Made by a program: the position numbers and the translations under genes. From Escherichia coli (lineage in GTDB: Bacteria > Pseudomonadota > Gammaproteobacteria > Enterobacterales > Enterobacteriaceae): a stretch of 64,000 nucleotides of DNA. The stretch is from assembly GCF_041248615.1 (NCBI RefSeq), contig NZ_CP158426.1, one strand, 5' to 3'. The notes below the pieces were generated by a model that searched no databases, was not told the DNA's origin, and saw nothing but the letters and a program-made list of their open reading frames with translations. How positions within the stretch are numbered: position 1 is the first letter of the stretch; the number at the start of each line of letters is the position of its first letter. This document shows positions 18,869 through 58,151 of the stretch, piece by piece.

Positions 18869-18922
18869 GGACAGGGACTGTTAAAATGCCAAATTTCCTG
18901 GCATCATGGCAACCATCTGAAC

Positions 18923-29615: not shown

Positions 29616-29830
29616 TTGATTTTATATTGGCGAGGTGACGTGAGTTAAGTAGAATTGCTGCGGGTGCTTGAGGCTATCTGCCTCAGGCATGAACACCAAA
29701 GGCAGATAGAGAAAAGCCCCAGTTAACATTACGCGTCCTGCAAGACGCTTAACATTAATCTGAGGCTCAATCTATGAACGGCAAATCTAGGTTAGCCTCT
29801 TACGTGCCGAAAGGCAAGGAGAAGCAGGCT

Positions 29831-29986: not shown

Positions 29987-30129
29987 GAGACCTGGCGGGG
30001 GAGAAATCCCTCGCCACCTCTGATGTGTCAGGCATCCTCAACGCACCCGCACTTAACCCGCTTCGGCGTTTTTTCCGTTGATTAACTCTAGTTATTAGAG
30101 AACCGAACTTTTATTGATGGGGCAGGGAG

Positions 30130-30522: not shown

Positions 30523-30720
30523 TGTATAGCTTGGACGATAAATTATTAGTGAAAACGCCGTAAACCCTCACCCAATGTGGACTAAGCCTATCAAACATGA
30601 CTGTGATGATTAGTCCGTAGTTGTTGCCTATGAAATCTGGATTGAGTCAGGGTTTAATCCAATAATTATTCTATCGTTCCTTTACAAGTCTGGTATATTA
30701 CTTTCAGTTTGTTTTAGCAT

Positions 30721-30747
30721 ACCCGCTTCGGCGGGTTTTGTTTTTTC
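30721..30747 (+). terminator. Intrinsic terminator
   Basis: ACCCGC-TTCG-GCGGGT hairpin followed by TTTGTTTTTT. Confidence 0.5.
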
Positions 30748-30818
30748 CTGGCATTCTGGTTTACAATTCGCACGCCAGCCTGAACAACTGGCACCTGCTG
30801 CGCCAGCAGAGACAACCG

Positions 30819-32154: not shown

Positions 32155-32520
32155 ATGACTGAACGCATAGAATTTGTTTTGCCTTACCCGCCGACGGTGA
32201 ATACCTACTGGCGACGTCATGGCAATACGTATTTCATCTCGGAAGCCGGAAAGCGTTATCGCCGTGATGTGGCGCTAATTGTTCGCCAGCAGCGGCTGAA
32301 ATTAAGCCTGTCCGGAAGGCTGGCGATAAAGATTATTGCAGAGCCACCGGATAAGCGCCGCCGCGACCTGGACAATATCCTGAAGGCACCACTGGATGCG
32401 CTGACGCATGCCGGACTACTTATAGACGACGAGCAGTTTGATGAAATCAATATTGTGCGCGGTCAGCTCGTTCCTGGTGGGCGGCTGGGGATAAAAATCA
32501 CAGAACTGGAGTGCGCATGA
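32155..32520 (+). CDS. rusA: RusA Holliday-junction resolvase
   Basis: 121-aa ORF MTERIEFVLPYPPTVNTYWRRHG...DLDNILKAPLDALTHAGLLIDD. Confidence 0.85.
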   Translation: MTERIEFVLPYPPTVNTYWRRHGNTYFISEAGKRYRRDVALIVRQQRLKLSLSGRLAIKIIAEPPDKRRRDLDNILKAPLDALTHAGLLIDDEQFDEINIVRGQLVPGGRLGIKITELECA

Positions 32521-33206
32521 ATAACCAGTATTTACAGTTTGTGCGTGAGCAGCTCATTATCGCCACCGCTGATTTGAGTGGGGCAACAAAAGGTCAGCTT
32601 GAAGCCTGGCAAGAGAATGCCATGTTCGATACAGGGCGTTACAGGCGAAAAAAAATCCGGTACCGCGATGAAGTGACTGGAAAAATGATAACGCGGGATA
32701 ATCCACCAATCCCGGGAAAGCAATCGCTGGCGAAGGGGACGTCAATTCCTCTGGTCAGTCCGGTTGAGTTTTCGACATCATCGTGGCGGCGGGCTGTTCT
32801 GTCTCTTGAAGAACATCATAAAGCCTGGTTGTTGTGGTGTTACAGCGGGAGTATTTGTTGGGAATATCAGATCGCGATAACACAGTGGGCGTGGAATGAA
32901 TTTAATACTCAATCCGGTACCAGAAAAATTGCAGGGAAAACGCAGGAACGCCTGAAAAAATTAATCTGGCTGGCGGCGCAGGCAGTAAAAGCAGAACTTT
33001 TTGGTGGGGAAGGTTATGAATACCAGGAGCTGGCATTACTGGCGGGAGTGACAACTAAAAACTGGTCCAAAACATTTACTCGTCACTGGGTTGCAATGAA
33101 ACACATTTTTCACCGACTTGATAGTGAGGCTTTATTGTTTGTAATGAGAACACGTTCAAAACAAAAGGCGGCATTTTCAAAGCAAAGTATTGCAAAAGTA
33201 GATTGA
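32511..33206 (+). CDS. Late-gene antiterminator Q-like protein
   Basis: 231-aa ORF after rusA and before tR'-like terminator, tRNAs and lysis genes; family assigned by position and length. Confidence 0.6.
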   Translation: MRMNNQYLQFVREQLIIATADLSGATKGQLEAWQENAMFDTGRYRRKKIRYRDEVTGKMITRDNPPIPGKQSLAKGTSIPLVSPVEFSTSSWRRAVLSLEEHHKAWLLWCYSGSICWEYQIAITQWAWNEFNTQSGTRKIAGKTQERLKKLIWLAAQAVKAELFGGEGYEYQELALLAGVTTKNWSKTFTRHWVAMKHIFHRLDSEALLFVMRTRSKQKAAFSKQSIAKVD

Positions 33207-33273
33207 AAGGCATATATTTCATGCAAATCTGATATTTTGCCGATTTTGTACGTGATGGCAAAAGCAAACAAAA

Positions 33274-33295
33274 CCCGCCCACAAGCGGGTTTTTT
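33274..33295 (+). terminator. tR'-like intrinsic terminator after Q
   Basis: CCCGC-CCACAA-GCGGG hairpin followed by TTTTTTG. Confidence 0.55.
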
Positions 33296-33401
33296 GTGCC
33301 ACTTATCTCGGATAGACATGGTGAATGCGCTAGTGGAGGAGATAAGGGTGATTTTTGAATGCTTGCAACATTGATTTCGTAACGTTATTATCCTGCGCCC
33401 G

Positions 33402-33477
33402 GCCCTTTAGCTCAGTGGTGAGAGCGAGCGACTCATAATCGCCAGGTCGCTGGTTCAAATCCAGCAAGGGCCACCAG
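33402..33477 (+). tRNA. tRNA with CAT anticodon (Met or Ile2, ileZ-like)
   Basis: GGCCCTTTAGCTCAGTGGTGAGAGC...CTCATAATCGC...GGTTCAAATCCAGCAAGGGCCACCA. Confidence 0.8.
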
Positions 33478-33478
33478 C

Positions 33479-33555
33479 CGCCACTAGCTCATCAGGAAAG
33501 AGCGTCAACCCTTTAAGTTGAGTGTGCGAGGTTCGAGTCCCCGGTGGCGGTCCAG
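33479..33555 (+). tRNA. tRNA-like gene, anticodon ambiguous (loop CCTTTAA, nominal TTT)
   Basis: 7-bp acceptor stem CCGCCAC/GTGGCGG, D and T arms present, CCA end; atypical C at position 33; T-stem has one A-C mismatch. Confidence 0.5.
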
Positions 33556-33556
33556 T

Positions 33557-33633
<77 letters not shown>

Positions 33634-33635
33634 AT

Positions 33636-33711
<76 letters not shown>

Positions 33712-33916: not shown

Positions 33917-33940
33917 GCCCGCTTTTGCGGGTTTTTCTTT
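33917..33940 (+). terminator. Intrinsic terminator upstream of holin
   Basis: GCCCGC-TTTT-GCGGG hairpin plus TTTTTCTTTTC. Confidence 0.5.
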
Positions 33941-34001
33941 TCAAATCCCTTTCATTTCTCAGTGTAAAACTACGCCATCCGTTATTTGCGGAGGTGAGGC
34001 T

Positions 34002-35633: not shown

Positions 35634-35788
35634 AAACCGGCCAAGGATAATCCGCTAAAGATTCGCCGGTGGCGAAAGAGAGCCAAGGTGTCAACCTACG
35701 CTATTACTTATGATAATGCAACAGACGAAGCGGGACATATTGGCGCATAACAAATCAGTGCAGGCTAACTGCAGGAAGAACTTAGGGC

Positions 35789-36055
35789 GTGAACGTAGAA
35801 AACCTAAGTAACGCACATTACATCTATAACGAGATGAAAGAGCTACAGCGACAGAAAGGTATACTGGAAAGTGGTGCAGGGCTTGGTGTGACAATCCAGT
35901 CTGCCTATCAATATAGTGCTTTTCTTGAGGCCATACGCCCGCATGCAGTTGCTGAACTTAACAGCCGTATTGAGGAAAAGAAATCCGCGCTGGTTAATTT
36001 GGGTGCTTCCTTCTCTATATACGAGCATAATAAGGCGGGTTGGAAACCCGCCTAA
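35789..36055 (+). CDS. Hypothetical protein (88 aa)
   Basis: ORF between lysis cassette and packaging genes; no motif recognised. Confidence 0.35.
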   Translation: MNVENLSNAHYIYNEMKELQRQKGILESGAGLGVTIQSAYQYSAFLEAIRPHAVAELNSRIEEKKSALVNLGASFSIYEHNKAGWKPA

Positions 36056-36060
36056 AGCAC

Positions 36061-36600
36061 TTAGAAACTGCGTGGAGCTGTGGAAAGAATGGATGTCAGT
36101 TCTTCCTTCGATAAATCCCAGCTTCGATTTACAGCGTCAATTTTCTTAAACTCATCAAGCATTGCGTTATAGAGATGTTCTGTACGTGAATGAGTATTGG
36201 CAATGGGCTGTTTCTGTTCGGGGAAGCGATCAATTTTCTGATATGCCTCAATGATACTGAAGTAATCGCATTCATTATGACCGTCGAAACCTGGGAGCTG
36301 AATTTCCCCATCATGTATTTTTAGATGATGGTCACGGACTAATTCTTTTTGCTCGTCATCACTAAGTTTCCTGAAAGCATTGGAAAGTCCGCGGTACATA
36401 TTCAAGACAGCAGTAACAAAATCACGATCTTCTTTACTTGGTTCATCAACATCCAAATGTGAATATTCGGCCTTCATAACCCAATCATTACCAGATGACA
36501 CAGCATATTTTACAAGCTGTGGATCAATATCAGTTTCGATACCTAGGTGGATGGCAATGTCACATAACAAAATGGTATTGATTTTATCCTTAATATCCAT
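36061..36600 (-). CDS. YfbU-family (UPF0304)-like protein, opposite-strand moron
   Basis: 179-aa ORF; resemblance to E. coli YfbU in the C-terminal half is by recollection only. Confidence 0.45.
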   Translation of the reverse strand: MDIKDKINTILLCDIAIHLGIETDIDPQLVKYAVSSGNDWVMKAEYSHLDVDEPSKEDRDFVTAVLNMYRGLSNAFRKLSDDEQKELVRDHHLKIHDGEIQLPGFDGHNECDYFSIIEAYQKIDRFPEQKQPIANTHSRTEHLYNAMLDEFKKIDAVNRSWDLSKEELTSILSTAPRSF

Positions 36601-36738
36601 GAGTTAACCCTCTGAAGTAAAAAGTAATATCTACACCCGTTAGCTCATGAAGTCTATTGATCTGGCTCATATCAGCGGCAAATCTATTTCATGGAGATAC
36701 TCAATGCAGGTCACTTTTGATTTATATAAGGGCGAAAC

Positions 36739-37089: not shown

Positions 37090-37237
37090 TAACAGTTCCC
37101 ATCTGTAGGGGAGGGGCGGGTCAAATCTCTGCAACCCTGGCTGCTCAGTACCGCCGCCTGACCCTTCCTCACATCGCCGCAGGTTCGAAAACTTTTTTTT
37201 GGAAATGTGAACAAACGATTGATAGGTAAGACCGATT

Positions 37238-42766: not shown

Positions 42767-43000
42767 ATGGGGCGCAGAAGTGCGCCCCCTGTTCTGACAG
42801 GTGAAAGAATCATGATCCTGAAACAAGATCTGAAATGGTCACCGGACGGTATGCGTGTTGAGATTATTCGGGCCGGTGAGTATGAAGATAAAGAATTACC
42901 CGAACGGGTACGCGAAATTGCCACTGCAGCTGGGATTGTCTCTGATAAGAGAACACCTGTTGCGCGGGGGGCTGATAAGTCTAAAAAACAGCATTCATAG
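42767..43000 (+). CDS. Hypothetical small protein after capsid
   Basis: 77-aa ORF, start uncertain (alternative Met at 42812). Confidence 0.3.
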   Translation: MGRRSAPPVLTGERIMILKQDLKWSPDGMRVEIIRAGEYEDKELPERVREIATAAGIVSDKRTPVARGADKSKKQHS

Positions 43001-43664: not shown

Positions 43665-44110
43665 TGGATTTCAGTCTTGATTTTTCAGGTCTGGCGGATA
43701 TTGCACGGGATCTGGAGACGCTCAGCAGGGCAGAAAATAATAAGGTACTGCGCGATGCCACCCGTGCCGGTGCTGAAGTTATGCGGGATGCAGTTGTTGA
43801 ACGTGCGCCGGAGCGAACCGGGAAACTGAAGAAAAATGTGGTTGTTCTCACTCAGCGTTCAAAGCGTCGCGGGGAAATTATCTCGGGTGTCCACATTCGT
43901 GGACGGAATCTGCGAACCGGAAACAGTGATAACAGCATGAAAGCCAGTGATCCCCGAAATGCGTTTTACTGGCGCTTTGTGGAGCTGGGAACGATAAACA
44001 TGCCCGCGCATCCGTTCATTCGCCCGGCTTTCGATACGACAGAGGAACTGGCAGCACAGATTGCCATACAGCGAATGAATCAGGCTATTGATGAGGTCTT
44101 AAGTAAATGA
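43661..44110 (+). CDS. HK97 gp10-like tail/neck component
   Basis: 149-aa ORF, overlapping stop/start with neighbours. Confidence 0.6.
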   Translation: MMDFSLDFSGLADIARDLETLSRAENNKVLRDATRAGAEVMRDAVVERAPERTGKLKKNVVVLTQRSKRRGEIISGVHIRGRNLRTGNSDNSMKASDPRNAFYWRFVELGTINMPAHPFIRPAFDTTEELAAQIAIQRMNQAIDEVLSK

Positions 44111-44451
44111 GAGAGACCACACTGTATTCCCTGCTGTCTCAACTGGCCGGAGGACAGGTTTATCCTTATGTGGTCCCGCTGACGGAGGGAAAGCCTGCGG
44201 TATCTCCGCCATGGCTGGTATTTTCTGTGGTGTCTGACACTGCGTCTGATGTGCTTGATGGTCAGGCTGAATCCAGAATTACCGTGCAGATCGATGTCTG
44301 GGCAACAGTACCTGATGACGCAGATGATATCCGTGAGCAGGCGCTTGATGCGGTAAGGCAACTTGCACCCTCCGTTATTTCTAAAACTCAGGGTTATGAT
44401 CCTGATTCCCGTCTGAGCAGAGCCACGCTTGAATTTCAGGTAATAGCCTGA
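44107..44451 (+). CDS. Tail completion protein
   Basis: 114-aa ORF preceding major tail gene. Confidence 0.55.
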   Translation: MRETTLYSLLSQLAGGQVYPYVVPLTEGKPAVSPPWLVFSVVSDTASDVLDGQAESRITVQIDVWATVPDDADDIREQALDAVRQLAPSVISKTQGYDPDSRLSRATLEFQVIA

Positions 44452-44472
44452 GGTCGTTAATGATTTTACCCA

Positions 44473-44498
44473 CCCGCCGCTGGCGGGTTTTTTATTTT
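44473..44498 (+). terminator. Strong hairpin plus T-run upstream of major tail gene
   Basis: CCCGCC-GCT-GGCGGG then TTTTTTATTTT. Confidence 0.5.
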
Positions 44499-44510: not shown

Positions 44511-45215
44511 ATGTCCTCTAATTTTGAGCGTTCGCAACTGACGAAAATTATGATTTCGTCTGCACCGGTAACAGCAGAAACCCTGGATTCTGCCAGCTAT
44601 CTTGGCCTGAGCTGTACAATCAAAGAGGTGCAGTTTACCGCAGGACAAAAGCAGGATATTGATGTCACCACGCTGTGTTCTGTTGAGCAGGAAAATATTA
44701 ACGGCCTTGGTGCCGCGTCAGAGATTTCCATGTCAGGCAACTTTTACCTCAATGCTGCCCAGAACGCGTTGCGCAGTGCCTATGACAATGACACCACGTA
44801 TGGCTTTAAAGTTATTTTTCCGTCAGGCAACGGATTTACCTTTATGGCAGAGGTGCGTCAGCATACCTGGTCTGCAGGAACTAATGGTGTTGTGGCTGCA
44901 ACGTTTTCCCTGCGCCTGAAAGGTAAACCTGTGCTGACGACAGAGCCGCTGAAAGTGAAGGTCGATTTAAACAGCACGCTGCAGGTTTCTGCCGGAGCGA
45001 AACTCGAAATGGTGGTTGAGGCTGCCGGTGGTGTGCCGCCTTATTCTTATGTCTGGAAGAAAGGTAGTTCTCCTGTTTCCGGACAGACGGCGGCAACATT
45101 CAGTAAGGCATCAGCAGCATCAGGTGATGCCGGTGCGTATACCTGCGAGATTTCTGATTCAGCAAGCCCTGTTAACAAGGTGACCTCCACTTCCTGCACT
45201 GTTACCGTCAGTTAA
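44511..45215 (+). CDS. Major tail protein with C-terminal Ig-like domain
   Basis: Start MSSNFERS; C-terminal ~90 aa with Ig-like pattern (LQVSAGAKLEMVVEAAGGVPPYSYVWKKG...YTCEISD). Confidence 0.8.
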   Translation: MSSNFERSQLTKIMISSAPVTAETLDSASYLGLSCTIKEVQFTAGQKQDIDVTTLCSVEQENINGLGAASEISMSGNFYLNAAQNALRSAYDNDTTYGFKVIFPSGNGFTFMAEVRQHTWSAGTNGVVAATFSLRLKGKPVLTTEPLKVKVDLNSTLQVSAGAKLEMVVEAAGGVPPYSYVWKKGSSPVSGQTAATFSKASAASGDAGAYTCEISDSASPVNKVTSTSCTVTVS

Positions 45216-45911: not shown

Positions 45912-45932
45912 AACCGCTTCGGCGGTTTTTTT
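45912..45932 (+). terminator. Hairpin plus T-run between GT and tape-measure gene
   Basis: ACCGC-TTCG-GCGGT then TTTTTTT. Confidence 0.45.
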
Positions 45933-45948: not shown

Positions 45949-48900
45949 GTGGCGACATTACGTGAACTGATTATTAAAATCTCGGCAAATTCCCGGTCAT
46001 TCCAGTCAGAGATCTCCCGGGCTTCGCGTATGGGGCAGGATTACTACCGTACCATGCAGAACGGAGGCCGGCAGTCCGCTGCTGCATCCCGTGAAATGCG
46101 GCGTGCACTGGCAGAAGTGACGGATCAGATAAATACAGCTAAATCTTCGGCACTGAATATGGCGGGGGCATTTGCCGGAGCTTTTGCTACCGGTCATCTT
46201 ATTTCTCTCGCCGATGAGTGGAATTCAGTAAATGCCCGTCTGAAGCAGGCTTCACAGTCCAGTGATGATTTTCGGGTATCACAACGTGAATTAATGGCAA
46301 TCAGCCAGAGAACGGGAACGGCGTTTTCTGATAACGCCAGCCTTTTTGCCCGCTCTGCAGCTTCCATGCGGGAGTATGGCTACAGTTCTGAGGAGGTACT
46401 GAAAGTCACCGAGGCGATCTCCACGGGCCTGAAATTATCCGGTGCCAGTACAGCAGAAGCCAGTTCGGTGATCACGCAGTTCAGTCAGGCACTGGCGCAG
46501 GGAGTGCTGCGCGGTGAAGAATTTAACTCTGTGAATGAGAACGGCGATCGTGTTATTCGTGCGCTGGCTGCGGGAATGGGTGTTGCCCGTAAGGATCTGA
46601 AGGCCATGGCGGATAACGGAAAACTGACCGCCGATAAGGTTGTTCCTGCACTGATTAGTCAGCTTGGGGCGTTGCGTGATGAATATGCAGCAATGCCTGA
46701 TACTGTTTCATCCTCTGCAACCAAAGTTGAAAACGCCTTTATGGCCTGGGTTGGTGGTGCGAACGAGGCAAGCGGAGTGACAAAGACACTCACCGGGGTG
46801 TTGAATGGTGTTGCAGACAATATTGATACCGTGGCTGCTGCAGCTGGCGCACTGGTTGCCGTCGGGGTAGCCCGATATTTTGGCAATATGGCGTCGTCTG
46901 CTGGATCTGCAACTGCCGGATTAATTACTGCAGCCAGAAACGAAGTGGCTCTTGCTGAAGCGCAACTTCGGGGGACACAGATAGCAACCGCCAGGGCGCG
47001 TGCGGCGGTTTATCGTGCGCAACAGGCGGTTGTTGCTGCTCGCGGTACCGAAAGGCAGGCCGCAGCAGAAGCGAAGCTGACAGCTGCCCAGGCGTCACTT
47101 ACCCGTAATATTGCGGCCAGAACAGCGGCACAGACAACGCTGAATACTGTCACGTCAGTGGGGAGTCGTCTGTTAAGTGGTGCGCTGGGGTTGGTTGGTG
47201 GTGTGCCGGGACTAGTCATGCTGGGGGCGACGGCCTGGTACACGATGTATCAGAATCAGGAGCAGGCCAGAGAATCTGCACGCCAGTATGCCGCAACAAT
47301 CGACGAAATTCGCCAGAAAACGTCGGCAATGTCGCTTCCTGAAGCGTCAGATAATGAGGAAAAGACGCGGCAGGCACTTGATGAGCAAAACAGGTTAATT
47401 GACGAGCAGAAAAGTAAGATTAAATCCTTACAGGAAAAAATTGCTGGCTATCAGTATGTGCTGGCAAACCCGGGCTGGACAACCGATAACGGTTTTATGA
47501 TTAACCACATGACGTCGGTAAAAACTGTCACAGAAGGGCTTGCAGAAGCAACAAATCAACTGGCAGTTGAACAGTCCCGTCTCACACAAATGCAGGGCAA
47601 AGCGCAATCCATTCAGGATGTGCTTGCCGGGCTGGAGGAGCGACGGGTGGCGTTGATCCGTCAACAGGCCGCGGAACAAAACAAAGCGTATCAGTCCCTG
47701 TTGATCATGAATGGGCAGCATACCGAGTTTAATCGCCTTCTCGGGCTCGGTAATGAATTACTTCAGCAGCGACAGGGGCTGGTGAATGTACCGTTACGGC
47801 TACCACAGGCAACCCTGGATGATAAACAGCAGACCGCACTGAATAACAGCGAGCGCGAACTGGCTCTGTCCCGCCTGAAGGGGGAAGCCCGTGAGCGTGC
47901 CCGCCTGGGTTATGCTGCGGATGATCTCGGCTTTGTGGGAGAGGCGTATCAGACAGCCAGACAGAATTATATCAATAACTCACTGGATGCCTGGCGAAAT
48001 AACCAGGCAAATAAACCCAAAGCGCATAAAAAGACCGAAGCGGAAAAAACAGAAGATATTTATAAACGGCTGATTAAACAGCAAAAAGAACAAATAGCAC
48101 TGGCAGGGCAGAATACTGAACTGGCTAAGATGAAATATCAGGTCAGTCAGGGCGAATTATCAACCCTGTCAGAAGCGCAGAAAAAAACGCTTTTGCAGAA
48201 TGCAGCACTCATCGACCAGAAAAAGATTCGTGAGCAGCTTGCTGCGTATGAGAGCAGTCTGGCGGACAGTAATGCCAGTGCCCGGGCATCTGACGAAGCG
48301 CAGTTGCTGGGATATGGTGAAGGCTCACGGATGCGTGAACGACTCCAGGAAATGTGGAGTATCCGGCAGGCGTTTGAGCAGAAAAATAACGAGCTGCTGA
48401 GACAGTATCAGGCCGGAGAAATTGAAGAAGCCCTGTGGAAACAGGAGAAAGAACTGAATAAAAAATATCTGGAAGAGCGTCTCAGCGATCAGCAGGATTA
48501 TTATGCAAAGGCCGATGCTTTACGTAATAACTGGAATGCCGGACTCCAGGAGGGACTGACCAACTGGGCAGACAGTGCTACCGATTATGCTTCACAGGCG
48601 GCAGATGCTGTCGTTTCCACGATGGACGGGCTGGTATCAAATATTTCCGATGCACTGGCCGGGAATGTTGTGGACTGGAGGAACTGGGGGAGTTCAGTTC
48701 TCCGGGAAGTTTCAAAAATTCTGATGAATGCAGCCATTGTTAACGGACTGAAATCACTCTCCGGTGCCGGAGGGTGGCTTGGTACGGTCGGCGGATGGAT
48801 TTCGGGGGCAGTGGCAAACGCAAAAGGTGGTGTTTACACATCGGCAAATCTGAGTGCTTACAGTAACACTATTGTGGATACACCGACGTATTTTGCTTTT

Positions 48901-49176
48901 GCGAAAGGTGCCGGGTTGATGGGCGAGGCCGGGCCTGAAGCAATCATGCCACTGACACGGGCAGCGGACGGCTCTCTTGGGGTCAGGGCCATTGGAAATG
49001 TGAATGGTGGCGGTGGATTTGTTTATTCTCCCGTGTATCACATCAGCATTCAGAATCAAGGGAGCAATGGCGAGATAGATGCGCGCTCAGCCAGGGGACT
49101 GGTGGATCTGATCGACAGCAGGGTTGTGTCAATTATGCAGTCATCGCGTCGGGATGGAGGATTGTACAGTGCCTGA
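45949..49176 (+). CDS. H: Tail tape measure protein (lambda H-like)
   Basis: 1075-aa ORF, coiled-coil/Ala-Gln-rich, position after G/GT. Confidence 0.9.
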   Translation: MATLRELIIKISANSRSFQSEISRASRMGQDYYRTMQNGGRQSAAASREMRRALAEVTDQINTAKSSALNMAGAFAGAFATGHLISLADEWNSVNARLKQASQSSDDFRVSQRELMAISQRTGTAFSDNASLFARSAASMREYGYSSEEVLKVTEAISTGLKLSGASTAEASSVITQFSQALAQGVLRGEEFNSVNENGDRVIRALAAGMGVARKDLKAMADNGKLTADKVVPALISQLGALRDEYAAMPDTVSSSATKVENAFMAWVGGANEASGVTKTLTGVLNGVADNIDTVAAAAGALVAVGVARYFGNMASSAGSATAGLITAARNEVALAEAQLRGTQIATARARAAVYRAQQAVVAARGTERQAAAEAKLTAAQASLTRNIAARTAAQTTLNTVTSVGSRLLSGALGLVGGVPGLVMLGATAWYTMYQNQEQARESARQYAATIDEIRQKTSAMSLPEASDNEEKTRQALDEQNRLIDEQKSKIKSLQEKIAGYQYVLANPGWTTDNGFMINHMTSVKTVTEGLAEATNQLAVEQSRLTQMQGKAQSIQDVLAGLEERRVALIRQQAAEQNKAYQSLLIMNGQHTEFNRLLGLGNELLQQRQGLVNVPLRLPQATLDDKQQTALNNSERELALSRLKGEARERARLGYAADDLGFVGEAYQTARQNYINNSLDAWRNNQANKPKAHKKTEAEKTEDIYKRLIKQQKEQIALAGQNTELAKMKYQVSQGELSTLSEAQKKTLLQNAALIDQKKIREQLAAYESSLADSNASARASDEAQLLGYGEGSRMRERLQEMWSIRQAFEQKNNELLRQYQAGEIEEALWKQEKELNKKYLEERLSDQQDYYAKADALRNNWNAGLQEGLTNWADSATDYASQAADAVVSTMDGLVSNISDALAGNVVDWRNWGSSVLREVSKILMNAAIVNGLKSLSGAGGWLGTVGGWISGAVANAKGGVYTSANLSAYSNTIVDTPTYFAFAKGAGLMGEAGPEAIMPLTRAADGSLGVRAIGNVNGGGGFVYSPVYHISIQNQGSNGEIDARSARGLVDLIDSRVVSIMQSSRRDGGLYSA

Positions 49177-50212: not shown

Positions 50213-50956
50213 ATGACAGAGACAGAATCAGCGATTCTGGCGCACGCCCGGCGATGTGCGCCAGCGGAGTCGTGCGGCTTCGTGGTGAGAACGCCGGAGG
50301 GGGTCAGATATTTTCCCTGCGTGAATATCTCCGGTGAGCCGGAGGCGTATTTCCGGATGTCGCCGGAGGACTGGCTGCGTGCACAAATGCAGGGGGAGGT
50401 TGTGGCACTGGTCCACAGCCACCCCGGTGGTCTGCCCTGGCTGAGTGAGGCTGACAGGCGGCTGCAGGTGCAGAGTGATTTGCCGTGGTGGCTGGTCTGC
50501 CGGGGGGCGATTCACAAGTTCCGCTGTGTGCCACATCTTACCGGGCGGCGCTTTGAGCACGGGGTGACGGACTGTTACACGCTGTTCCGGGATGCATACC
50601 ATCTGGCGGAAATTGAGATGCCGGATTTTTATCGCGGGGATGACTGGTGGCGTAACGGCCAGAATCTCTATCTTGAAAATATGGAGGCGACTGGTTTTTA
50701 CCGTGTCGCACTGACAGAGGCGCAGCCGGGCGATGTGCTGCTGTGCTGTTTTGGTTCATCGGTGCCGAATCATGCCGCCATTTACTGCGGCGACGGCGAG
50801 CTGCTGCACCATATTCCTGAACAACTGAGCAAACGAGAGAGGTATACCGACAAATGGCAGCGACGCACACACTCCCTCTGGCGTCACCGGGCATGGCACG
50901 CATCTGCCTTTACGGGAATTTACAACGATTTGGCCGCCGCATCGACCTTCGTGTGA
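50213..50956 (+). CDS. K: Tail assembly protein K (MPN/JAB plus NlpC/P60 domains)
   Basis: Start MTETESAILAHARRC; HSHP motif; lambda K-like. Confidence 0.85.
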   Translation: MTETESAILAHARRCAPAESCGFVVRTPEGVRYFPCVNISGEPEAYFRMSPEDWLRAQMQGEVVALVHSHPGGLPWLSEADRRLQVQSDLPWWLVCRGAIHKFRCVPHLTGRRFEHGVTDCYTLFRDAYHLAEIEMPDFYRGDDWWRNGQNLYLENMEATGFYRVALTEAQPGDVLLCCFGSSVPNHAAIYCGDGELLHHIPEQLSKRERYTDKWQRRTHSLWRHRAWHASAFTGIYNDLAAASTFV

Positions 50957-51501
50957 AAACGGGGGCCGAAGCCATCCGGGCGCTGGCCATGCAGATCCCG
51001 GCGTTTCGTCAGAAACTGAGTGACGGCTGGTATCAGGTACGGATTGCCGGGCGTGATGCAGGTGAAACCGAATTGTCTGCCCGTCTTAATGAGCCGCTGG
51101 CAAATGGTGCCGTGATCCACATCGTTCCGCGTCTGGAGGGGGCCAAAAGTGGCGGTGTGTTTCAGGCGGTGCTGGGTGCGGCGCTGATTGCGGTGGCATG
51201 GTGGAACCCTGTAGGCTGGCTGGGGGCCGCGGCTGTATCGGGTATGTATGCAGCAGGGGCCAGTATGATCCTGGGTGGTGTGGCGCAGATGCTGGCACCG
51301 AAAGCCCGGACGCCCACGGCAGCCAGTACAGATAACGGCAAACAGAACACGTATTTCTCGTCACTGGATAACATGGTTGCCCAGGGCAATGTTCTGCCCG
51401 TTCTGTACGGTGAAATGCGTGTGGGGTCGCGGGTGGTATCTCAGGAGATCAGCACGGCAGATGAAGGTGATGGTGGTCAGGTTGTGGTGATTGGTCGCTG
51501 A
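50854..51501 (+). CDS. I: Tail assembly protein I
   Basis: MAATHTLPLASPGMARICLYGNLQRFGRRIDLRVKTGAEAIRALA... close to lambda I as I recall it. Confidence 0.9.
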   Translation: MAATHTLPLASPGMARICLYGNLQRFGRRIDLRVKTGAEAIRALAMQIPAFRQKLSDGWYQVRIAGRDAGETELSARLNEPLANGAVIHIVPRLEGAKSGGVFQAVLGAALIAVAWWNPVGWLGAAAVSGMYAAGASMILGGVAQMLAPKARTPTAASTDNGKQNTYFSSLDNMVAQGNVLPVLYGEMRVGSRVVSQEISTADEGDGGQVVVIGR

Positions 51502-51520
51502 TGAAAAATGTTTTATGTGA

Positions 51521-51547
51521 AACCGCCTGCGGGCGGTTTTGTCGTTT
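51521..51547 (+). terminator. Hairpin plus T-run upstream of J
   Basis: ACCGCC-TGCG-GGCGGT then TTTTGTCGTTT. Confidence 0.4.
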
Positions 51548-51561
51548 ATGGAGCGTGAGGA

Positions 51562-54500
51562 ATGGGTAAAGGCAGCAGTAAGGGGCATACCCCGCGCGAA
51601 GCGAAGGACAACCTGAAGTCCACGCAGTTGCTGAGTGTGATCGATGCCATCAGCGAAGGGCCGATTGACGGTCCGGTGGATGGATTAAAAAGCGTGCTGC
51701 TGAACAGTACGCCAGTGCTGGACAGTGAGGGGAATACCAATATCTCCGGTGTCACGGTGGTGTTCCGGGCAGGTGAGCAGGAGCAGACACCGCCGGAGGG
51801 ATTTGAATCCTCCGGCTCCGAGACGGTGCTGGGTACGGAAGTGAAATACGACACGCCGATCACCCGGACCATCACGTCGGCAAACATTGACCGACTGCGT
51901 TTTACCTTCGGCGTGCAGGCACTGGTGGAAACCACCTCAAAGGGGGACAGGAATCCGTCGGAAGTCCGCCTGCTGGTTCAGATACAACGTAACGGTGGCT
52001 GGGTGACGGAAAAAGACATCACCATTAAAGGCAAAACCACCTCACAGTATCTGGCCTCGGTGGTGGTGGATAACCTGCCGCCGCGCCCGTTTAATATCCG
52101 GATGCGCAGGATGACGCCGGACAGCACCACAGACCAGCTGCAGAACAAAACGCTCTGGTCGTCATACACCGAAATTATCGATGTGAAACAGTGCTACCCG
52201 AACACGGCACTGGTCGGCGTGCAGGTGGATTCGGAGCAGTTCGGCAGCCAGCAGGTGAGCCGTAATTATCATCTGCGCGGGCGTATTCTGCAGGTGCCGT
52301 CGAATTATAATCCGCAGACGCGGCAATACAGCGGTATCTGGGACGGAACGTTTAAACCGGCATACAGCAACAACATGGCATGGTGTCTGTGGGATATGCT
52401 GACCCACCCGCGCTACGGCATGGGGAAACGTCTTGGTGCGGCGGATGTGGACAAATGGGCGCTGTATGTCATCGGCCAGTATTGCGACCAGTCGGTGCCG
52501 GACGGTTTTGGCGGCACGGAGCCGCGCATCACCTGTAACGCTTACCTGACCACACAGCGTAAGGCGTGGGATGTGCTCAGTGATTTCTGCTCGGCGATGC
52601 GCTGTATGCCGGTATGGAACGGGCAGACGCTGACGTTCGTGCAGGACCGACCGTCGGATAAGGTGTGGACCTATAACCGCAGTAATGTGGTGATGCCGGA
52701 TGATGGCGCGCCGTTCCGCTACAGTTTCAGCGCCCTGAAGGACCGCCATAATGCCGTTGAGGTGAACTGGATTGACCCGGATAACGGCTGGGAAACGGCA
52801 ACAGAGCTTGTGGAGGACACGCAGGCCATTGCCCGTTACGGTCGTAATGTCACGAAGATGGATGCCTTTGGCTGTACCAGTCGGGGGCAGGCGCACCGCG
52901 CCGGGCTGTGGCTGATTAAAACGGAACTGCTGGAAACGCAGACCGTGGACTTCAGCGTGGGTGCGGAAGGGCTTCGCCATGTACCGGGGGATGTCATTGA
53001 AATCTGCGATGATGACTATGCGGGTATCAGCACCGGCGGGCGCGTGCTGGCGGTGAACAGCCAGACCCGGACGCTGACGCTCGACCGTGAAATCACGCTG
53101 CCATCCTCCGGTATCACGCTGATAAGCCTGGTTGACGGAAGTGGCAATCCGGTCAGCGTGGAGGTTCAGTCCGTCACCGACGGCGTGAAGGTAAAAGTGA
53201 GCCGTGTTCCTGACGGTGTTGCTGAATACAGCGTATGGGGGCTGAAGCTGCCGACGCTGCGCCAGCGACTGTTCCGCTGCGTGAGTATCCGTGAGAACGA
53301 CGACGGCACGTATGCCATCACTGCCGTGCAGCATGTACCGGAGAAAGAAGCCATCGTGGATAACGGGGCGTACTTTGACGGCGACCAGAGCGGAACGGTG
53401 AACGGTGTCACGCCGCCCGCGGTGCAGCACCTGACTGCAGAAGTCACCGCAGACAGCGGGGAATACCAGGTGCTGGCGCGCTGGGACACGCCGAAGGTGG
53501 TGAAGGGGGTGAGCTTTATGCTTCGCCTGACCGTGGCAGCGGATGACGGCAGTGAGCGGCTGGTCAGCACGGCCAGGACGACGGAAACCACATACCGCTT
53601 CAGGCAACTGGCGCTGGGGCGTTACACGCTGACGGTCCGGGCGGTAAATGCGTGGGGACAGCAGGGCGATCCGGCATCGGTATCGTTCCGGATTGCCGCA
53701 CCGGCAGCGCCGTCGCGGATTGAGCTGACGCCGGGCTATTTTCAGATAACTGCCACGCCGCATCTTGCGGTTTATGATCCGACGGTACAGTTTGAGTTCT
53801 GGTTCTCGGAAAAGCGGATTGCGGATATCAGGCAGGTTGAAGCCAGCGCGCGTTATCTTGGTACGGCGCTGTACTGGATAGCCGCCAGTATCAATATCAA
53901 ACCGGGCCATGATTATTATTTTTACATTCGCAGTGTGAACACCGTTGGCAAATCGGCATTCGTGGAGGCTGTTGGCCAGCCGAGTGATGATGCATCCGGC
54001 TATCTGGATTTTTTCAAAGGCGAGATAGGGAAAACCCATCTGGCTCAGGAGCTGTGGACGCAGATTGATAACGGTCAGCTTGCGCCTGACCTGGCTGAAA
54101 TCAGGACGTCCATTACGGATGTCAGCAATGAAGTCACGCAGACCGTCAATAAGAAACTGGAAGACCAGAGTGCGGCAATTCAGCAGATACAGAAGGTTCA
54201 GGTTGATACAAATAATAACCTGAACAGCATGTGGGCTGTGAAGCTGCAGCAGATGCAGGACGGACGCCTTTATATCGCGGGTATTGGTGCCGGTATTGAG
54301 AATACCCCTGACGGCATGCAGAGTCAGGTGCTGCTGGCGGCGGACAGGATTGCGATGGTTAATCCTGCGAATGGCAACACAAAGCCGATGTTTGTTGGTC
54401 AGGGCGATCAGATATTCATGAACGAAGTGTTCCTGAAATATCTGACGGCTCCCACCATTACCAGCGGCGGTAATCCTCCGGCATTTTCCCTGACACCGGA

Positions 54501-55041
54501 CGGGCGGCTGACGGCGAAAAATGCCGATATCAGCGGTAACGTGAATGCGAACTCCGGGACGCTCAACAACGTCACGATTAACGAGAACTGCCGGGTTCTG
54601 GGAAAACTGTCCGCGAACCAGATTGAAGGCGATCTCGTTAAAACAGTGGGCAAAGCTTTCCCCCGGGACTCCCGTGCACCGGAACGCTGGCCATCAGGGA
54701 CCATTACCGTCAGGATTTATGACGATCAGCCGTTTGACCGGCAGATTGTTATTCCGGCGGTGGCATTCAGCGGCGCTAAGCATGAGAGAGAGCATACTGA
54801 TATTTACTCCTCATGCCGTCTGATAGTGCGGAAAAACGGTGCTGAAATTTATAACCGTACCGCGCTGGATAATACGCTGATTTACAGTGGCGTTATTGAT
54901 ATGCCTGCCGGTCACGGTCACATGACGCTGGAGTTTTCGGTGTCAGCATGGCTGGTAAATGACTGGTATCCCACAGCAAGTATCAGCGATTTGCTGGTTG
55001 TGGTGATGAAGAAAGCCACCGCAGGCATCAGTATCAGCTGA
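51562..55041 (+). CDS. J: Host specificity protein J (central tail fibre)
   Basis: 1159-aa ORF, lambda J-like position and length. Confidence 0.9.
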
Positions 55042-55060
55042 ATTTTATAACCCCAATACG

Positions 55061-55087
55061 GGCGTCAGAAATGACGCCTTTTTTATT
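55061..55087 (+). terminator. Intrinsic terminator after J
   Basis: GGCGTCA-GAAA-TGACGCC then TTTTTT. Confidence 0.55.
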
Positions 55088-55108: not shown

Positions 55109-55708
55109 ATGCGTAAATTATGTGCTGTTATTCTGTCCGCAGTAGTCTGGCTGGTTGCCGCTGGTACGCCAGCGAGCGCAGCAGAGCATCAGTCCACACT
55201 AAGCGCCGGGTATCTTCAGACCCATACTGATATGCCAGGCAGTGATGACCTGAAGGGCATTAACGTGAAATACCGTTATGAATTTACGGACACGCTGGGG
55301 CTGGTGACGTCATTCAGTTATGCCAATGCCAAAGATGAGCAAAAAACGCATTACAGCGATACCCGCTGGCATGAAGATTCAGTGCGTAACCGCTGGTTCA
55401 GCATGATGGCGGGGCCATCTGTACGCGTGAATGAATGGTTCAGTGCTTATGCGATGGCAGGTGTGGCTTACAGCCGTGTTTCGACGTTCTCCGGGGATTA
55501 TCTCCGCGTAACTGACAACAAGGGGAAAACGCACGATGTGCTGACCGGAAGTGATGACGGTCGCCACAGCAACACGTCTCTGGCGTGGGGAGCTGGCGTG
55601 CAGTTTAACCCGACCGAATCCGTGGCCATTGATATTGCTTATGAAGGCTCCGGCAGTGGTGACTGGCGCACTGACGGTTTCATCGTGGGTGTCGGTTATA
55701 AATTCTGA
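55109..55708 (+). CDS. lom: Lom/Ail-family outer-membrane protein
   Basis: 199-aa ORF with signal peptide and 8-strand beta-barrel pattern, C-terminal GVGYKF. Confidence 0.85.
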   Translation: MRKLCAVILSAVVWLVAAGTPASAAEHQSTLSAGYLQTHTDMPGSDDLKGINVKYRYEFTDTLGLVTSFSYANAKDEQKTHYSDTRWHEDSVRNRWFSMMAGPSVRVNEWFSAYAMAGVAYSRVSTFSGDYLRVTDNKGKTHDVLTGSDDGRHSNTSLAWGAGVQFNPTESVAIDIAYEGSGSGDWRTDGFIVGVGYKF

Positions 55709-55734: not shown

Positions 55735-55761
55735 AGCCCGCCGGTTCAGGCGGGCTTTTTT
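55735..55761 (+). terminator. Intrinsic terminator after lom
   Basis: AGCCCGCC-GGTTCA-GGCGGGCT then TTTTTT. Confidence 0.55.
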
Positions 55762-55766
55762 GTGGA

Positions 55767-58151
55767 GTGGATATGGCAGCAGTAAAAATCTCAGGTGTGC
55801 TGAAAGATGGTGCGGGAAAACCAATACAGAACTGCACTATTCAACTGAAGGCAAAGCGTAACAGCACCACGGTACTGGTGAACACGGTGGCTTCTGAAAA
55901 TCCGGATGAAGCCGGACGTTACAGCATGGATGTTGAGTATGGCCAGTACAGCGTCACCCTGCTGGTTGAAGGTTTTCCGCCTTCACATGCCGGGACCATT
56001 ACCGTCTATGAAGGTTCCAGACCAGGTACGCTGAATGATTTTCTCGGTGCCATGACGGAAGATGATGTCATGCCGGAGGCATTGCGTCGTTTTGAGGCAA
56101 TGGTGGAAGAAGCGGCACGCAACGCCGAAGCCGCCTCTCAGAGCGCAGCGGCGGCAAAGAAATCCGAAACTGCAGCGGCATCATCGAAGAACGCGGCGAA
56201 AACCTCAGAAACGAATGCAGCTAACAGCGCACAGGCGGCAGCGACCTCACAGACTGCATCGGCAAACTCCGCGACAGCAGCCAAAAAATCAGAAACCAAC
56301 GCGAAAAACAGCGAGACAGCCGCAAAGACGAGCGAAACCAACGCAAAGTCCAGCCAGACGGCAGCGAAGACCAGCGAAACGAATGCCAAAGCCAGTGAAA
56401 CTGCGGCAAAAAACAGCCAGGTTGCAGCAGCCCAAAGCGAGAGCGCGGCAGCCGGTTCTGCGACTTCAGCAGCCGGATCAGCAACTGCTGCGGCTAACAG
56501 CCAGAAAGCTGCGAAGACGAGTGAAACTAACGCAAAGTCCAGCCAGACGGCAGCGAAGACCAGCGAAACGAATGCCAAAGCCAGTGAAACTGCGGCGAAA
56601 AACAGTCAGGATGCTGCAGCCCAAAGCGAGAGTGCCGCAGCTGGTTCTGCAAGTGCGGCGGCTTCTTCTGCCACTGCATCAGCCAACAGTCAAAAAGCTG
56701 CAAAAACCAGTGAAACCAACGCAAAGGCGAGCGAGACTGCGGCGGCTAACTCGGCGAAAGCATCCGCTGCAAGCCAGACGGCTGCAAAAGCAAGTGAAGA
56801 CGCAGCCAGAGAGTATGCAAGCCAGGCTGCGGAGCCGTATAAACAAGTTTTGCAGCCGCTTCCCGATGTGTGGATACCGTTTAACGATTCACTGGATATG
56901 ATTACGGGCTTTTCGCCATCATATAAAAAGATTGTTATTGGCGACGACGAAATAACGATGCCTGGTGACAAGGTTGTTAAGTTTAAACGCGCATCGAAAG
57001 CAACCTATATTAATAAATCTGGTGTACTGACAGAGGCTGCCATTGACGAGCCGCGATTTGAACGTGATGGCCTGCTTATTGAGGGGCAAAGAACTAATCT
57101 TCTGCTTAATTCAACAAATCCATCTAAATGGAATAAGTCAGGCAATCTGGAACTCACAGAAATATCCACGGATTCTTTTAATTTTACTTATGGGAGATTT
57201 ACTGTAAAAGATACTCTTATTGATCAGACAAGTGCGATTAATATCGTAACGGTTTCTGGCAGTAAAGGATTTGATGTCACAGGTGATGAAAAATATGTGA
57301 CCATTTCATGCCGTGTCAGAAGTGATGTTGAAAATATAAGGTGTCGTTTAAGATTTGAACATCATGATGGTTCTACTTACACTTTTTTGGGAGATGCTTA
57401 CCTCAATTTATCAACACTTGTAATTGATAAGACTGGTGGTGCAGCAAATCGTATTATTGCAAAGGCTGTAAAAGATGAGGCTACTGGTTGGATTTTCTAT
57501 CAGGCTACAATTAATGCACTAGATACAGAGAGCATGATTGGTGCGATGGTTCAATATGCTCCAGTAAAAGGTTCAGGCACAGCATCTGGAGACTATCTGG
57601 ATATCGCAACTCCACAAGTGGAAGGTGGATCAAGTGCTTCGTCATTTATTGTAACTGATATAATTGCAAGCACTCGCGCAAGCGATATGGTGACAGTCCC
57701 AATCAAGAATAACCTTTATAATCTTCCTTTTACAGTTCTTTGTGAGGTACATAAGAACTGGTATAAAACGCCAAATGCAGCACCGCGTGTTTTTGATACC
57801 GGCGGTCATCAAACCGGAGCGGCTATTATTCTTGGCTTCGGTCGTTCAACAGATTACGACGGATTTCCTTATTGCGATATAGGTTTGGCTAACAGACGGG
57901 TAAACGAAAACGCATCGCTTGAAAAAATGGTTATGGGGATGCGTGTAAAGTCAGATCAGTCTACGTGCTCAGTAAGTAACGGGCGTATATCCAGCGAAAA
58001 GAAAGCCACATGGTCCTATATTCAGAACACCGCAATTATCCGTATTGGAGGCCAGACTACAGCCGGGTTGCGTCATTTATTTGGTCATGTCAGGAATTTC
58101 AGAATATGGCACAAGGCATTGACTGATGCTCAGGTGGGGGAGTCAATCTAA
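55767..58151 (+). CDS. stf: Side tail fibre (Stf-like) with Ala-rich repeat region
   Basis: N-terminus MAAVKISGVLKDGAGKPIQNCTIQLKAKRNSTTVLVNTV close to lambda Stf; variable C-terminal half. Confidence 0.8.
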   Translation: MDMAAVKISGVLKDGAGKPIQNCTIQLKAKRNSTTVLVNTVASENPDEAGRYSMDVEYGQYSVTLLVEGFPPSHAGTITVYEGSRPGTLNDFLGAMTEDDVMPEALRRFEAMVEEAARNAEAASQSAAAAKKSETAAASSKNAAKTSETNAANSAQAAATSQTASANSATAAKKSETNAKNSETAAKTSETNAKSSQTAAKTSETNAKASETAAKNSQVAAAQSESAAAGSATSAAGSATAAANSQKAAKTSETNAKSSQTAAKTSETNAKASETAAKNSQDAAAQSESAAAGSASAAASSATASANSQKAAKTSETNAKASETAAANSAKASAASQTAAKASEDAAREYASQAAEPYKQVLQPLPDVWIPFNDSLDMITGFSPSYKKIVIGDDEITMPGDKVVKFKRASKATYINKSGVLTEAAIDEPRFERDGLLIEGQRTNLLLNSTNPSKWNKSGNLELTEISTDSFNFTYGRFTVKDTLIDQTSAINIVTVSGSKGFDVTGDEKYVTISCRVRSDVENIRCRLRFEHHDGSTYTFLGDAYLNLSTLVIDKTGGAANRIIAKAVKDEATGWIFYQATINALDTESMIGAMVQYAPVKGSGTASGDYLDIATPQVEGGSSASSFIVTDIIASTRASDMVTVPIKNNLYNLPFTVLCEVHKNWYKTPNAAPRVFDTGGHQTGAAIILGFGRSTDYDGFPYCDIGLANRRVNENASLEKMVMGMRVKSDQSTCSVSNGRISSEKKATWSYIQNTAIIRIGGQTTAGLRHLFGHVRNFRIWHKALTDAQVGESI
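56322..56700 (+). repeat. Tandem duplication (~2 x 189 bp) inside stf
   Basis: Near-identical units starting at 56322 and 56511, encoding KTSETNAKSSQTAAKTSETNAKASETAAKNSQ.AAAQSESAAAGSA. Confidence 0.6.

Follow-up and report, generated by a model that had tools for sequence, protein, structure and literature searches.

Intrinsic-terminator-like hairpins between the structural genes of a lambdoid prophage of Escherichia coli

Lambdoid late operons are the textbook example of more than 20 kb of genes served by a single promoter and a single antiterminator, and the question raised by the prophage described here is why such an operon should hold structures resembling transcription terminators between its genes. 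The prophage lies in a 64,000-nt stretch of an Escherichia coli genome (contig NZ_CP158426.1), referred to below as the window. A sequence-only reading of this DNA had pointed to strong GC hairpins followed by T-runs before the major tail, tape-measure and J genes, after J, after lom and at 30721, and had proposed that within a Q-antiterminated operon they could be read through and act as mRNA-stabilising or processing elements. All six are present and fold better than shuffled sequences. By anatomy the late-operon hairpins are intrinsic (Rho-independent) terminators of the canonical kind, pointing in the direction of late transcription, and from this anatomy we infer termination, read-through and 3′ ends at these sites. 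The hairpins themselves are already known, being annotated in HK97-like phages and in one case identical in lambda, and the window adds no new kind of element. What is added here is a split between core sites and sites in accessory-gene ("moron") slots, a quantified depth of conservation at the site before the major tail gene, and the point that the downstream genes would be inexpressible without read-through.

The prophage extends from about 24 kb to 60.7 kb of the window and is 99.2% identical to phage vB_EcoM-606R7. Its tail region is 100% identical to that of E. coli SMS-3-5 and was found in 902 of 5,426 complete E. coli genomes. It is a mosaic in which an HK97-type head and tube module is joined to lambda-type L-K-I-J genes that share 92-94% nucleotide identity with lambda (94% over 51256-54058, a stretch that reaches into J). 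Pfam matches were obtained for the Q antiterminator, the HK97-fold capsid, tail completion, the tail chaperones G and T, the tape measure, I, J and Lom, and the Q gene call agrees with the RefSeq annotation of the 98.8% identical SMS-3-5 prophage. The genes needed for the argument are as follows.

32511 to 33206, + strand: antiterminator Q gene (Pfam PF06323 Phage_antiter_Q, E = 8.6e-92), directly upstream of the late operon
44107 to 44451, + strand: tail completion / tail terminator gene (PF11367 and RefSeq), last gene of the head-neck block
44511 to 45215, + strand: major tail (tube) protein gene of the HK97 gp12 family, 72% identical to HK97 gp12
45949 to 49176, + strand: tape measure protein gene (PF06120, PF20155, PF09718), GTG start
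51562 to 55041, + strand: tail tip attachment protein J gene (six J-specific Pfam domains), ATG at 51562
55109 to 55708, + strand: lom, an Ail/Lom outer-membrane protein gene (PF06316, E = 5e-128), with a terminator on each side

The hairpins do lie, as the sequence-only reading had it, inside an operon headed by a Q gene. The start of the tube gene at 44511 is backed by an SD and by the N-termini of homologues in a protein alignment. An N-terminally extended tail ORF (ATG 44460, 251 aa), which would have placed the hairpin before the tube gene within coding sequence, was rejected: the SD stands 7 nt before 44511, homologues start M-S-S/A, and the upstream stretch is unconserved as protein. 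The annotation of BP-4795 uses such an extended ORF.

A permissive hairpin scan was only mildly enriched (29 versus 18.7, and 23 versus 21.2), and a stricter one was therefore written, demanding a stem of dG <= -8 kcal/mol and, within the 6 nt that follow it, no fewer than 5 T. Over the structural operon of about 22 kb (37238-59500) the strict scan returned six sites on the + strand and none on the - strand, compared with a mean of 0.26 and a maximum of 2 in 100 dinucleotide shuffles. Five of the six are intergenic, gaps making up 570 of 22,744 nt (2.5%); the sixth, at 50601-50626, lies inside K, has a mismatched stem and is probably due to chance. Seen from the side of the gaps, the structural operon has six of 45-67 nt, all of which hold a hairpin and five of which hold a T-run as well.

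44472 to 44498, + strand: terminator A, upstream of the major tail gene; ACCCGCC-GCT-GGCGGGT (44472-44488) followed by TTTTTTATTTT (T6ATTTT), then the SD AGGAG and the ATG at 44511
45912 to 45932, + strand: terminator B, before the tape-measure gene; AACCGC-TTCG-GCGGTT (45912-45927), 7 T in total (45926-45932)
51519 to 51547, + strand: terminator C, before J; (G)AAACCGCC-TGCG-GGCGGTTT(T) (51519-51540) followed by GTCGTTT; -16.1 kcal/mol, z = -3.0
55060 to 55085, + strand: terminator after J, before lom; GGGCGTCA-GAAA-TGACGCCT (55060-55079) followed by TTTTTT; z = -3.9
55735 to 55762, + strand: terminator after lom; AGCCCGCC-GGTTCA-GGCGGGCT (55735-55756) followed by TTTTTT; -18.6 kcal/mol
42769 to 42788, + strand: hairpin after the major capsid gene; GGGGCGCA-GAAG-TGCGCCCC, 8 nt past the stop codon, without a T-run
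30721 to 30747, + strand: terminator in the early-right region; ACCCGC-TTCG-GCGGGT (30721-30736) followed by TTTGTTTTTT; -13.1 kcal/mol, z = -3.6

The six hairpins of the sequence-only reading fold at -8.5 to -18.6 kcal/mol, with z = -2.3 to -3.9 against shuffles, and have stems of 6-9 bp with 4-7 G-C pairs and loops of 3-6 nt. At least 5 T in 6 nt follow the stem at the five late-operon sites, at 30721 and at a further hairpin at 33917; the hairpin after the capsid gene falls short of this. Four of the five intergenic sites begin 17-26 nt past the upstream stop codon, clear of the terminating ribosome. The sites mark the borders between blocks of closely packed, overlapping genes, namely head-neck / tube and chaperones / tape measure-M-L-K-I / J / lom / fibres, and genes inside blocks overlap while those following hairpin sites are not translationally coupled to the preceding gene. 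A search of the window against Rfam 15 placed no family at any hairpin, its only matches being sok, DicF and six tRNAs.

The sequence-only reading had also remarked on shared TTCG or GAAA tetraloops. This holds in part: TTCG occurs twice, GAAA once and TGCG, of the UNCG class, once, but the hairpin that it had put first, site A, has a GCT triloop. The 12-mer CCGCTTCGGCGG occurs exactly twice, where the expected number is 0. Of 41 distinct hairpins compared at a single junction in different species, 24 have UNCG loops. Shared loops are therefore no sign of ancestry; they reflect the tendency of short terminators in general to have very stable loops. The idea that the hairpins form a REP-like repeat or share an ancestor was rejected, as only CCGCTTCGGCGG recurs and the same minimal design appears in unrelated species, which points to convergence.

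The position of the sites bears directly on how the downstream genes can be transcribed. In the late operon of the window only 11-30 nt separate a hairpin from the next start codon, too few to hold a promoter, and the tube, tape-measure and J genes, which are essential, must be transcribed by polymerase that has passed the terminators. The read-through that the sequence-only reading had suggested is thus obligatory before the major tail, tape-measure and J genes. In a consensus promoter scan, promoter-like sites were no commoner than in shuffles and none fell in the short gaps. In lambda, Q-modified polymerase reads through downstream terminators by an established mechanism, and here too the read-through is presumably by Q-modified polymerase, because strong terminators in series would otherwise abolish tail production. 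Polymerase that takes up Q at the late promoter would then ignore the terminators in lytic growth, and the operon would stay one unit.

If the sites are passed in lytic growth, what has kept them? The depth of conservation was followed at site A, which begins 20 nt past the stop codon of the tail-completion gene and ends its stem 22 nt ahead of the major-tail ATG, in a gap of 59 nt. A GC hairpin and T-run directly before the tube-gene SD was found in 10 of 10 phages from Escherichia, Klebsiella, Salmonella, Morganella, Cronobacter, Burkholderia and Halomonas, whose tube proteins are 37-100% identical to that of the window; the stems differ and the gaps measure 52-61 nt. For a wider sample, one genome per species was scanned with the tube-protein alignment, giving 66 prophage loci, in 59 of which the site A homologue passed a strict test (dG <= -7). 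Two more narrowly fail it, so that about 61 of 66 (about 92%) of these loci, from Enterobacterales, Halomonadaceae and Burkholderia phages, carry the element. The five loci where the hairpin is missing are all from Xenorhabdus and have a compact junction. Conservation, on which the sequence-only reading had made its proposal depend, was thus found in 59-61 of 66 loci at site A, and before HK97-type J in every one of the 80 contigs described below.

The geometry of the element is equally constant. In the survey 19-26 nt, with GGAG among them, lie between the stem and the start codon, the median gap between the tail-terminator and tube genes is 59 nt, as in the window, and the spacer between stop codon and hairpin has a median length of 18 nt, contains 4.4% G and is unstructured. 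The homologues comprise 42 distinct hairpin sequences. Pairs were counted in an ungapped, loop-anchored alignment fitted to each hairpin, so that the shuffle and slid-register controls outweigh the raw percentages: among the 41 distinct tetraloop hairpins canonical pairing reaches 98.8% over the inner six base pairs, where a single position shows as many as four pair types, and overall pairing is 0.872, against 0.681 in column shuffles (maximum 0.726) and 0.25-0.57 in slid registers. The loops of these 41 are UNCG in 24 and GNRA in 5, and positions T18-T22 of the T-run are invariant or nearly so. MAFFT with RNAalifold, applied to 65 sequences of the 52 nt ahead of the tail gene, found no consensus structure, the loops of 3-6 nt having been put out of register; MAFFT still inserted gaps into fixed site A 28-mers, and the close relatives in IMG/VR, at 97-100% identity, were too similar for a covariation test. 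The comparison shows selection at site A on the T-run as well as on pairing, in dozens of species.

Terminators are not spread evenly over these loci. Throughout 405 kb of surveyed sequence, + strand terminators cluster at four places that are constant with respect to the tube gene (behind the capsid gene, just ahead of the tube gene, behind tube genes that are short, and ahead of the tape-measure gene) and occur almost nowhere else; over the 66 loci there are 144 on the + strand against 43 on the - strand, the latter scattered.

A possible though somewhat unlikely explanation is the one first proposed for the window, in which RNase E would cut the U-rich tract after read-through and the hairpin would block 3′-to-5′ exonucleases, giving each block its own half-life and setting protein ratios post-transcriptionally. 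The hairpins bracket the two most abundant virion genes, being found after the capsid gene in most relatives as well as in the window, HK97 and lambda, and after the tube gene in HK97 and in the Klebsiella, ECP1 and Cronobacter phages. The U-rich tract that adjoins the stem is similar to the sequences favoured by RNase E. The hairpin after the capsid gene, present in 8 of 8 phages compared and in most of 58 prophages, often lacks a T-run (it has one in only about a third to a half of prophages, by a heuristic and noisy classification), which would suit a pure exonuclease barrier. Yet such a barrier needs no T-run, and at site A the run is kept in about 61 of 66 relatives; that it is nearly constant there and often missing after the capsid gene suggests that site A is more than an exonuclease block. 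Placed where it is, site A would moreover shield the upstream low-copy neck genes and not the downstream tube gene, after which the window has no hairpin, and the same design precedes the low-copy tape-measure and J genes.

The intercistronic mRNA-stabilising hairpins of the REP elements in malEFG are a known case of such a function. The window's hairpins are like them in being stable, in lying between cistrons and in that they could block 3′ exonucleases, and the T-run-less one after the capsid gene fits best. They differ in that REP elements form a repeated family, whereas these are unique short sequences, most of them with a conserved T-run.

The fixed spacing would also suit a role in translation, in which the hairpin isolates the ribosome-binding site and the U-tract recruits ribosomal protein S1, so that the first gene of each block has independent strong initiation. 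The stem-to-start distance with its intervening GGAG, the G-depleted, unstructured spacer upstream of the hairpin, and the lack of coupling at genes after sites, when within-block genes overlap, all fit. We nevertheless consider this very unlikely: the identical design precedes the low-abundance tape measure and J as well as lom, it is indistinguishable from that of ordinary terminators, and five relatives express the tube gene without the site A hairpin.

The sites fall into two classes. Those before the major tail gene and before J form a core class, which is conserved together with the module itself, and the others (before the tape-measure gene, on both sides of lom, and at 30721) are accessory-slot, or moron, terminators, which appear and disappear along with inserted DNA. 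Site C lies in the 60-nt gap between I (stop at 51501) and J (ATG at 51562). Its counterpart was followed in contigs with an HK97-type J, a protein whose N-terminal 200 residues are 35% identical to those of the window's J: a GCCACC-loop-GGTGGC stem with a T-run stands 10-18 nt before the start codon in 80 of 80, with varying loops. As these contigs are 94-100% alike, they count as one lineage beside that of lambda and the window.

Morons carry their own promoter and terminator, leading to expression from repressed prophages, and the gene 15 slot of HK97 is where the term was first defined (PMC3594210). Site B occupies exactly that slot, between the tail chaperone genes and the tape-measure gene, in a 45-nt gap between the T stop (45903) and the tape-measure GTG (45949). 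In 7 of 80 close relatives an insert of 475 nt with a GC content of 0.37 (neighbours 0.50-0.53) lies between T and an identical hairpin B, and has two small ORFs, one for a membrane peptide and the other for a zinc-ribbon peptide. HK97 has in this slot the YebO-like gp15, unrelated to the 475-nt insert and again followed by a terminator, and Klebsiella, Salmonella and Halomonas phages have other small genes there, with a terminator after each. Across junctions, a terminator precedes the tape-measure gene in 0 of 19 that are compact, 9 of 18 with short gaps and 15 of 21 with gene-sized room. The T/tape-measure junction of the window is an empty moron slot with a terminator; it is unlike a moron in holding the terminator only, with no gene and no room for a promoter. 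The notion that hairpins serve as joints in mosaic recombination was also looked at: two homology breakpoints lie flush with site B; others, for example at 43315, do not, and a paper on lambdoid mosaicism has nothing on breakpoints.

The remaining accessory sites follow the same pattern. In the nin-like early-right region, the terminator at 30721 stands upstream of DUF968-RusA-Q and closes an AT-rich accessory insert; the insert (30075-30797) has a GC content of 0.41 against 0.51 in its neighbours, and SMS-3-5 has neither the insert nor a hairpin there. The gene lom, a classical accessory gene, has a GC content of 0.53, slightly lower than the 0.57 of its neighbours, and is without a counterpart between J and stf in HK97; the terminator distal to it stands 11 nt before the tail-fibre ORF. 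A terminator at the 3′ end of the accessory DNA, as in morons, is found at 30721, at 45912 (in the relatives with cargo) and at 55735, and lom and the insert closed by the 30721 hairpin both have the form of such a cassette. No cargo is associated with site A or with the J-proximal site, which sets these two apart from morons, and no accessory gene adjoins site A in any relative examined.

It might be argued from site B that the terminators are functionless leftovers, which came with accessory genes later lost and persist since Q makes them harmless. The empty slot of the window, the relatives that hold cargo there beside the identical hairpin, the pair of breakpoints flush with site B and the variable insert ended by the 30721 site are what such a history would leave. 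As a general account we find this improbable: site A is never found with cargo, has been retained by about 92% of the 66 species and has undergone compensatory changes in its stem, and the presence of the J-proximal site in 80 of 80 contigs would go unexplained.

The GenBank record of HK97 (NC_002167 / AF069529) annotates "putative" terminators at the following places, four of which (after the major head gene, before the major tail subunit, before the tape-measure gene and before J) are junctions that hold a hairpin in the window too.

HK97: annotated terminator after the major head gene
HK97, 6692-6719: annotated terminator at the tail terminator / major tail subunit junction
HK97: annotated terminator after the tube gene
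HK97, 8398-8422: annotated terminator after the gene-15 moron, before the tape-measure gene
HK97: annotated terminator before I
HK97, 15107-15129: annotated terminator before J

HK544 (JQ086374) similarly labels a "rho-independent terminator" after the major head, before the major tail and before the tape-measure gene. At the tail gene HK97 has, like the window, a CCCGCC/GGCGGG stem and the downstream CAGGAGAC, although its loop is AGAT and that of the window GCT. Its sites before the tape-measure gene and before J, unlike those of the window, follow accessory genes (gp15; gp22/23) and have unrelated stems. It also has a hairpin after the tube gene, where the window has a gap of 14 nt and none, and it lacks a lom with two terminators. 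In lambda the I/J hairpin is identical base for base to site C (lambda 15463-15485), and hairpins likewise stand after J, after lom and after the major capsid gene E; the one after lom is a homologue (19612-19633) and the one after J (18920-18935) is of different sequence. Unlike the window, lambda has no gap and no hairpin at U/V (7 nt) or T/H (overlap).

These comparisons matter for the proposal that the sites are leaky attenuators, at which Q-modified polymerase would stop at a small fixed frequency, producing a stepwise fall from capsid to tube to tape measure to J. The order of the sites does match declining virion copy number. Inefficient terminators that balance expression are documented for T7 and were seen in phage LUZ7 (10.1101/2022.03.18.484859). 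Phage L is a P22-like phage with predicted intrinsic terminators inside a single-promoter antiterminated late operon, at the border of a gene module; for its authors the roles of such terminators "are not known", and they suggest partial termination, or the stopping of transcription begun without antitermination (10.1101/2020.10.05.325894). Phage L differs from the window in being a podovirus with a terminator at the end of the procapsid module, and there is no homology. The sites in the window look strong and not weakened, with GC stems, UNCG loops and 6-8 T, and lambda makes the same kind of tail without sites at U/V or T/H. In lambda, moreover, Q-modified polymerase passes consecutive terminators efficiently. 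Attenuation at these sites is accordingly of low probability in our view.

The reading that we favour, at a probability of about one half, is that the sites have been selected for stopping unmodified polymerase in the lysogen, with bypass by Q in lytic growth. Unmodified polymerase could have started at the promoters of accessory genes or at stray internal ones, or could have leaked through the terminators that follow Q, and internal promoters have been mapped inside a prophage capsid cluster (PMC7067206). The structural genes would thereby be kept silent in the lysogen, while accessory transcripts (lom, the cargo at T/tape-measure and the insert at 30.1-30.8 kb) would gain defined 3′ ends; as a secondary effect, late mRNA cut nearby would end in a protective hairpin. 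The moron-slot class fits this role well. The main weakness of the lysogen-termination reading lies at site A, which has no accessory gene or known promoter upstream. In addition, a block against leak-through would be expected to put terminators before the lysis genes and not before the tail tube gene, and five Xenorhabdus prophages manage without site A.

For site A, and maybe site C too, one may ask instead whether it is a dedicated, anciently conserved cis-regulatory RNA element that sets the ratio of head to tail expression and is not just a passive insulator. It might act, for example, as a checkpoint to which even antiterminated polymerase is subject, or as a processing or Hfq-binding site, which would yield a stable head-neck mRNA or a small RNA derived from its 3′ end. 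The comparative signature of site A (the occupancy of about 92%, fixed geometry, G-depleted spacer, T-run and compensatory changes) is compatible with such a role, which we consider unlikely.

The question of terminator function has now become directly testable, through simple deletions and through existing Term-seq data for EHEC prophages, available for EHEC Sakai (PMC7547250; GEO GSE143631) together with dRNA-seq and with Hfq and RNase E crosslinking; a literature search found no 3′-end map of the late transcripts of lambda or HK97. The Sp prophages of O157 Sakai have tube proteins about 73% identical to that of the window and a hairpin of the same type, an example being AACCCGC-CGCGT-GCGGGTT followed by T6 in BP-4795. 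The answer has a bearing on phage engineering and on how prophages silence their structural proteins. Some host defences sense phage structural proteins.

Three hairpins lie beyond those that the sequence-only reading had listed, namely the one after the capsid gene (42769-42788) and those at 33917-33932 and 33270-33293, and a further bidirectional one was noted after the tail-fibre genes.

33917 to 33942, + strand: terminator before the holin gene; GCCCGC-TTTT-GCGGGT (33917-33932) followed by TTTTCTTTTC; z = -3.7
33270 to 33293, both strands: bidirectional hairpin (A-run / T-run) after Q, 64 nt past the Q stop; -19.2 kcal/mol, found by the strict scan on either strand
59489 to 59503, both strands: bidirectional hairpin after the last tail-fibre gene (fibre stop at 59482)

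The pre-holin terminator follows four tRNA genes (33401-33707) and stands 60 nt before the holin gene (34002). The hairpin after Q is a candidate tR′-type terminator, and that at 59489-59503 is a candidate for the end of the late operon.

At the 66 related prophage loci (L093-L158, one genome per species), the spacer between the stop codon of the tail-terminator gene and the hairpin preceding the major tail (tube) gene measures 18 nt in the median. Despite its sequence not being conserved, it shows a strong depletion of G (A 0.33, C 0.39, G 0.04, T 0.25). This composition may avoid pairings that compete with the stem, or may keep the region unstructured. Five of these loci, all Xenorhabdus prophages (L144, L149, L150, L152 and L153), lack a terminator before the tube gene and have a compact junction. 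They constitute one sub-clade within the same tube-gene family and provide natural "deletion mutants" of the tube-gene terminator that can be used for comparison. In phage BP-4795 (AJ556162; L085 2372-3217), the major tail gene as deposited overlaps the preceding gene and spans the terminator hairpin. This deposited start lies ~130 nt too far upstream; both the homologs and the SD sequence indicate that the gene begins at locus position 2501.

A contrasting element follows the major capsid gene:

Window 42769-42788: strong hairpin GGGGCGCA-GAAG-TGCGCCCC, 8 nt 3′ of the major capsid stop codon, without a T-run.

This position is occupied by a hairpin in nearly all relatives, but whereas the site before the tube gene is terminator-like, here a T-run is often absent, being found in only one-third to one-half of the relatives.

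The slot between T and the tape-measure gene carries cargo in 7/80 close relatives, in the form of a two-ORF insert with a GC content of 0.37:

L057 (close relative) 3394-3795: low-GC two-ORF insert, also present in L013, L017, L040, L042, L060 and L071.

One ORF specifies a 57-aa membrane peptide, the other a 55-aa zinc-ribbon peptide, and in these relatives the insert ends at the same hairpin that is found at window 45912. Salmonella phage SP-016 harbours in the same slot a 111-aa zinc-ribbon gene with the same terminator core, which is possibly the unsplit form of the insert genes.

Downstream of the antiterminator gene Q, the order of elements is similar to the late promoter-tR′-tRNA layout of Stx phages, with the tRNA genes flanked by two terminators (window 33270-33293, the first and bidirectional, and 33917-33932). 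Further along, with the lysis genes on one side and the HNH/terminase genes on the other, the window contains ~1.1 kb of DNA that is extra relative to the SMS-3-5 prophage (35634-36738, GC 0.42). The features of these two regions are:

Window 33401-33707: four tRNA genes, between Q and the lysis cassette.
Window 36061-36600, minus strand: 179-aa ORF with a YfbU domain, inside the extra DNA.
Window 36052-36034, minus strand: hairpin 3′ of the YfbU-domain ORF and belonging to it.

The ORF and its own hairpin form an accessory cassette that lies within the late operon in reverse orientation. Of the large gaps in the late operon, only the 148-nt one between the HNH endonuclease and small terminase genes (window 37090-37237), the expected location of cos in HK97-like phages, lacks a terminator-like hairpin.

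At the far end of the tail genes lies a hairpin where the late operon probably has its true end:

Window 59489-59503, both strands: bidirectional GC hairpin GGGGCCGAGCGCCCC, 7 nt 3′ of the last tail-fibre gene.

The window has an intact tail-fibre gene (55767-58151), which in the SMS-3-5 prophage (L001 31774-35379) is split by an IS3-family element. Lastly, because Rfam matches to the sok antisense RNA (window 29662-29836, adjoining a hok/mok ORF at 29774-29986) and the DicF sRNA (window 23438-23489) are present, the prophage backbone is Qin/Kim-like.
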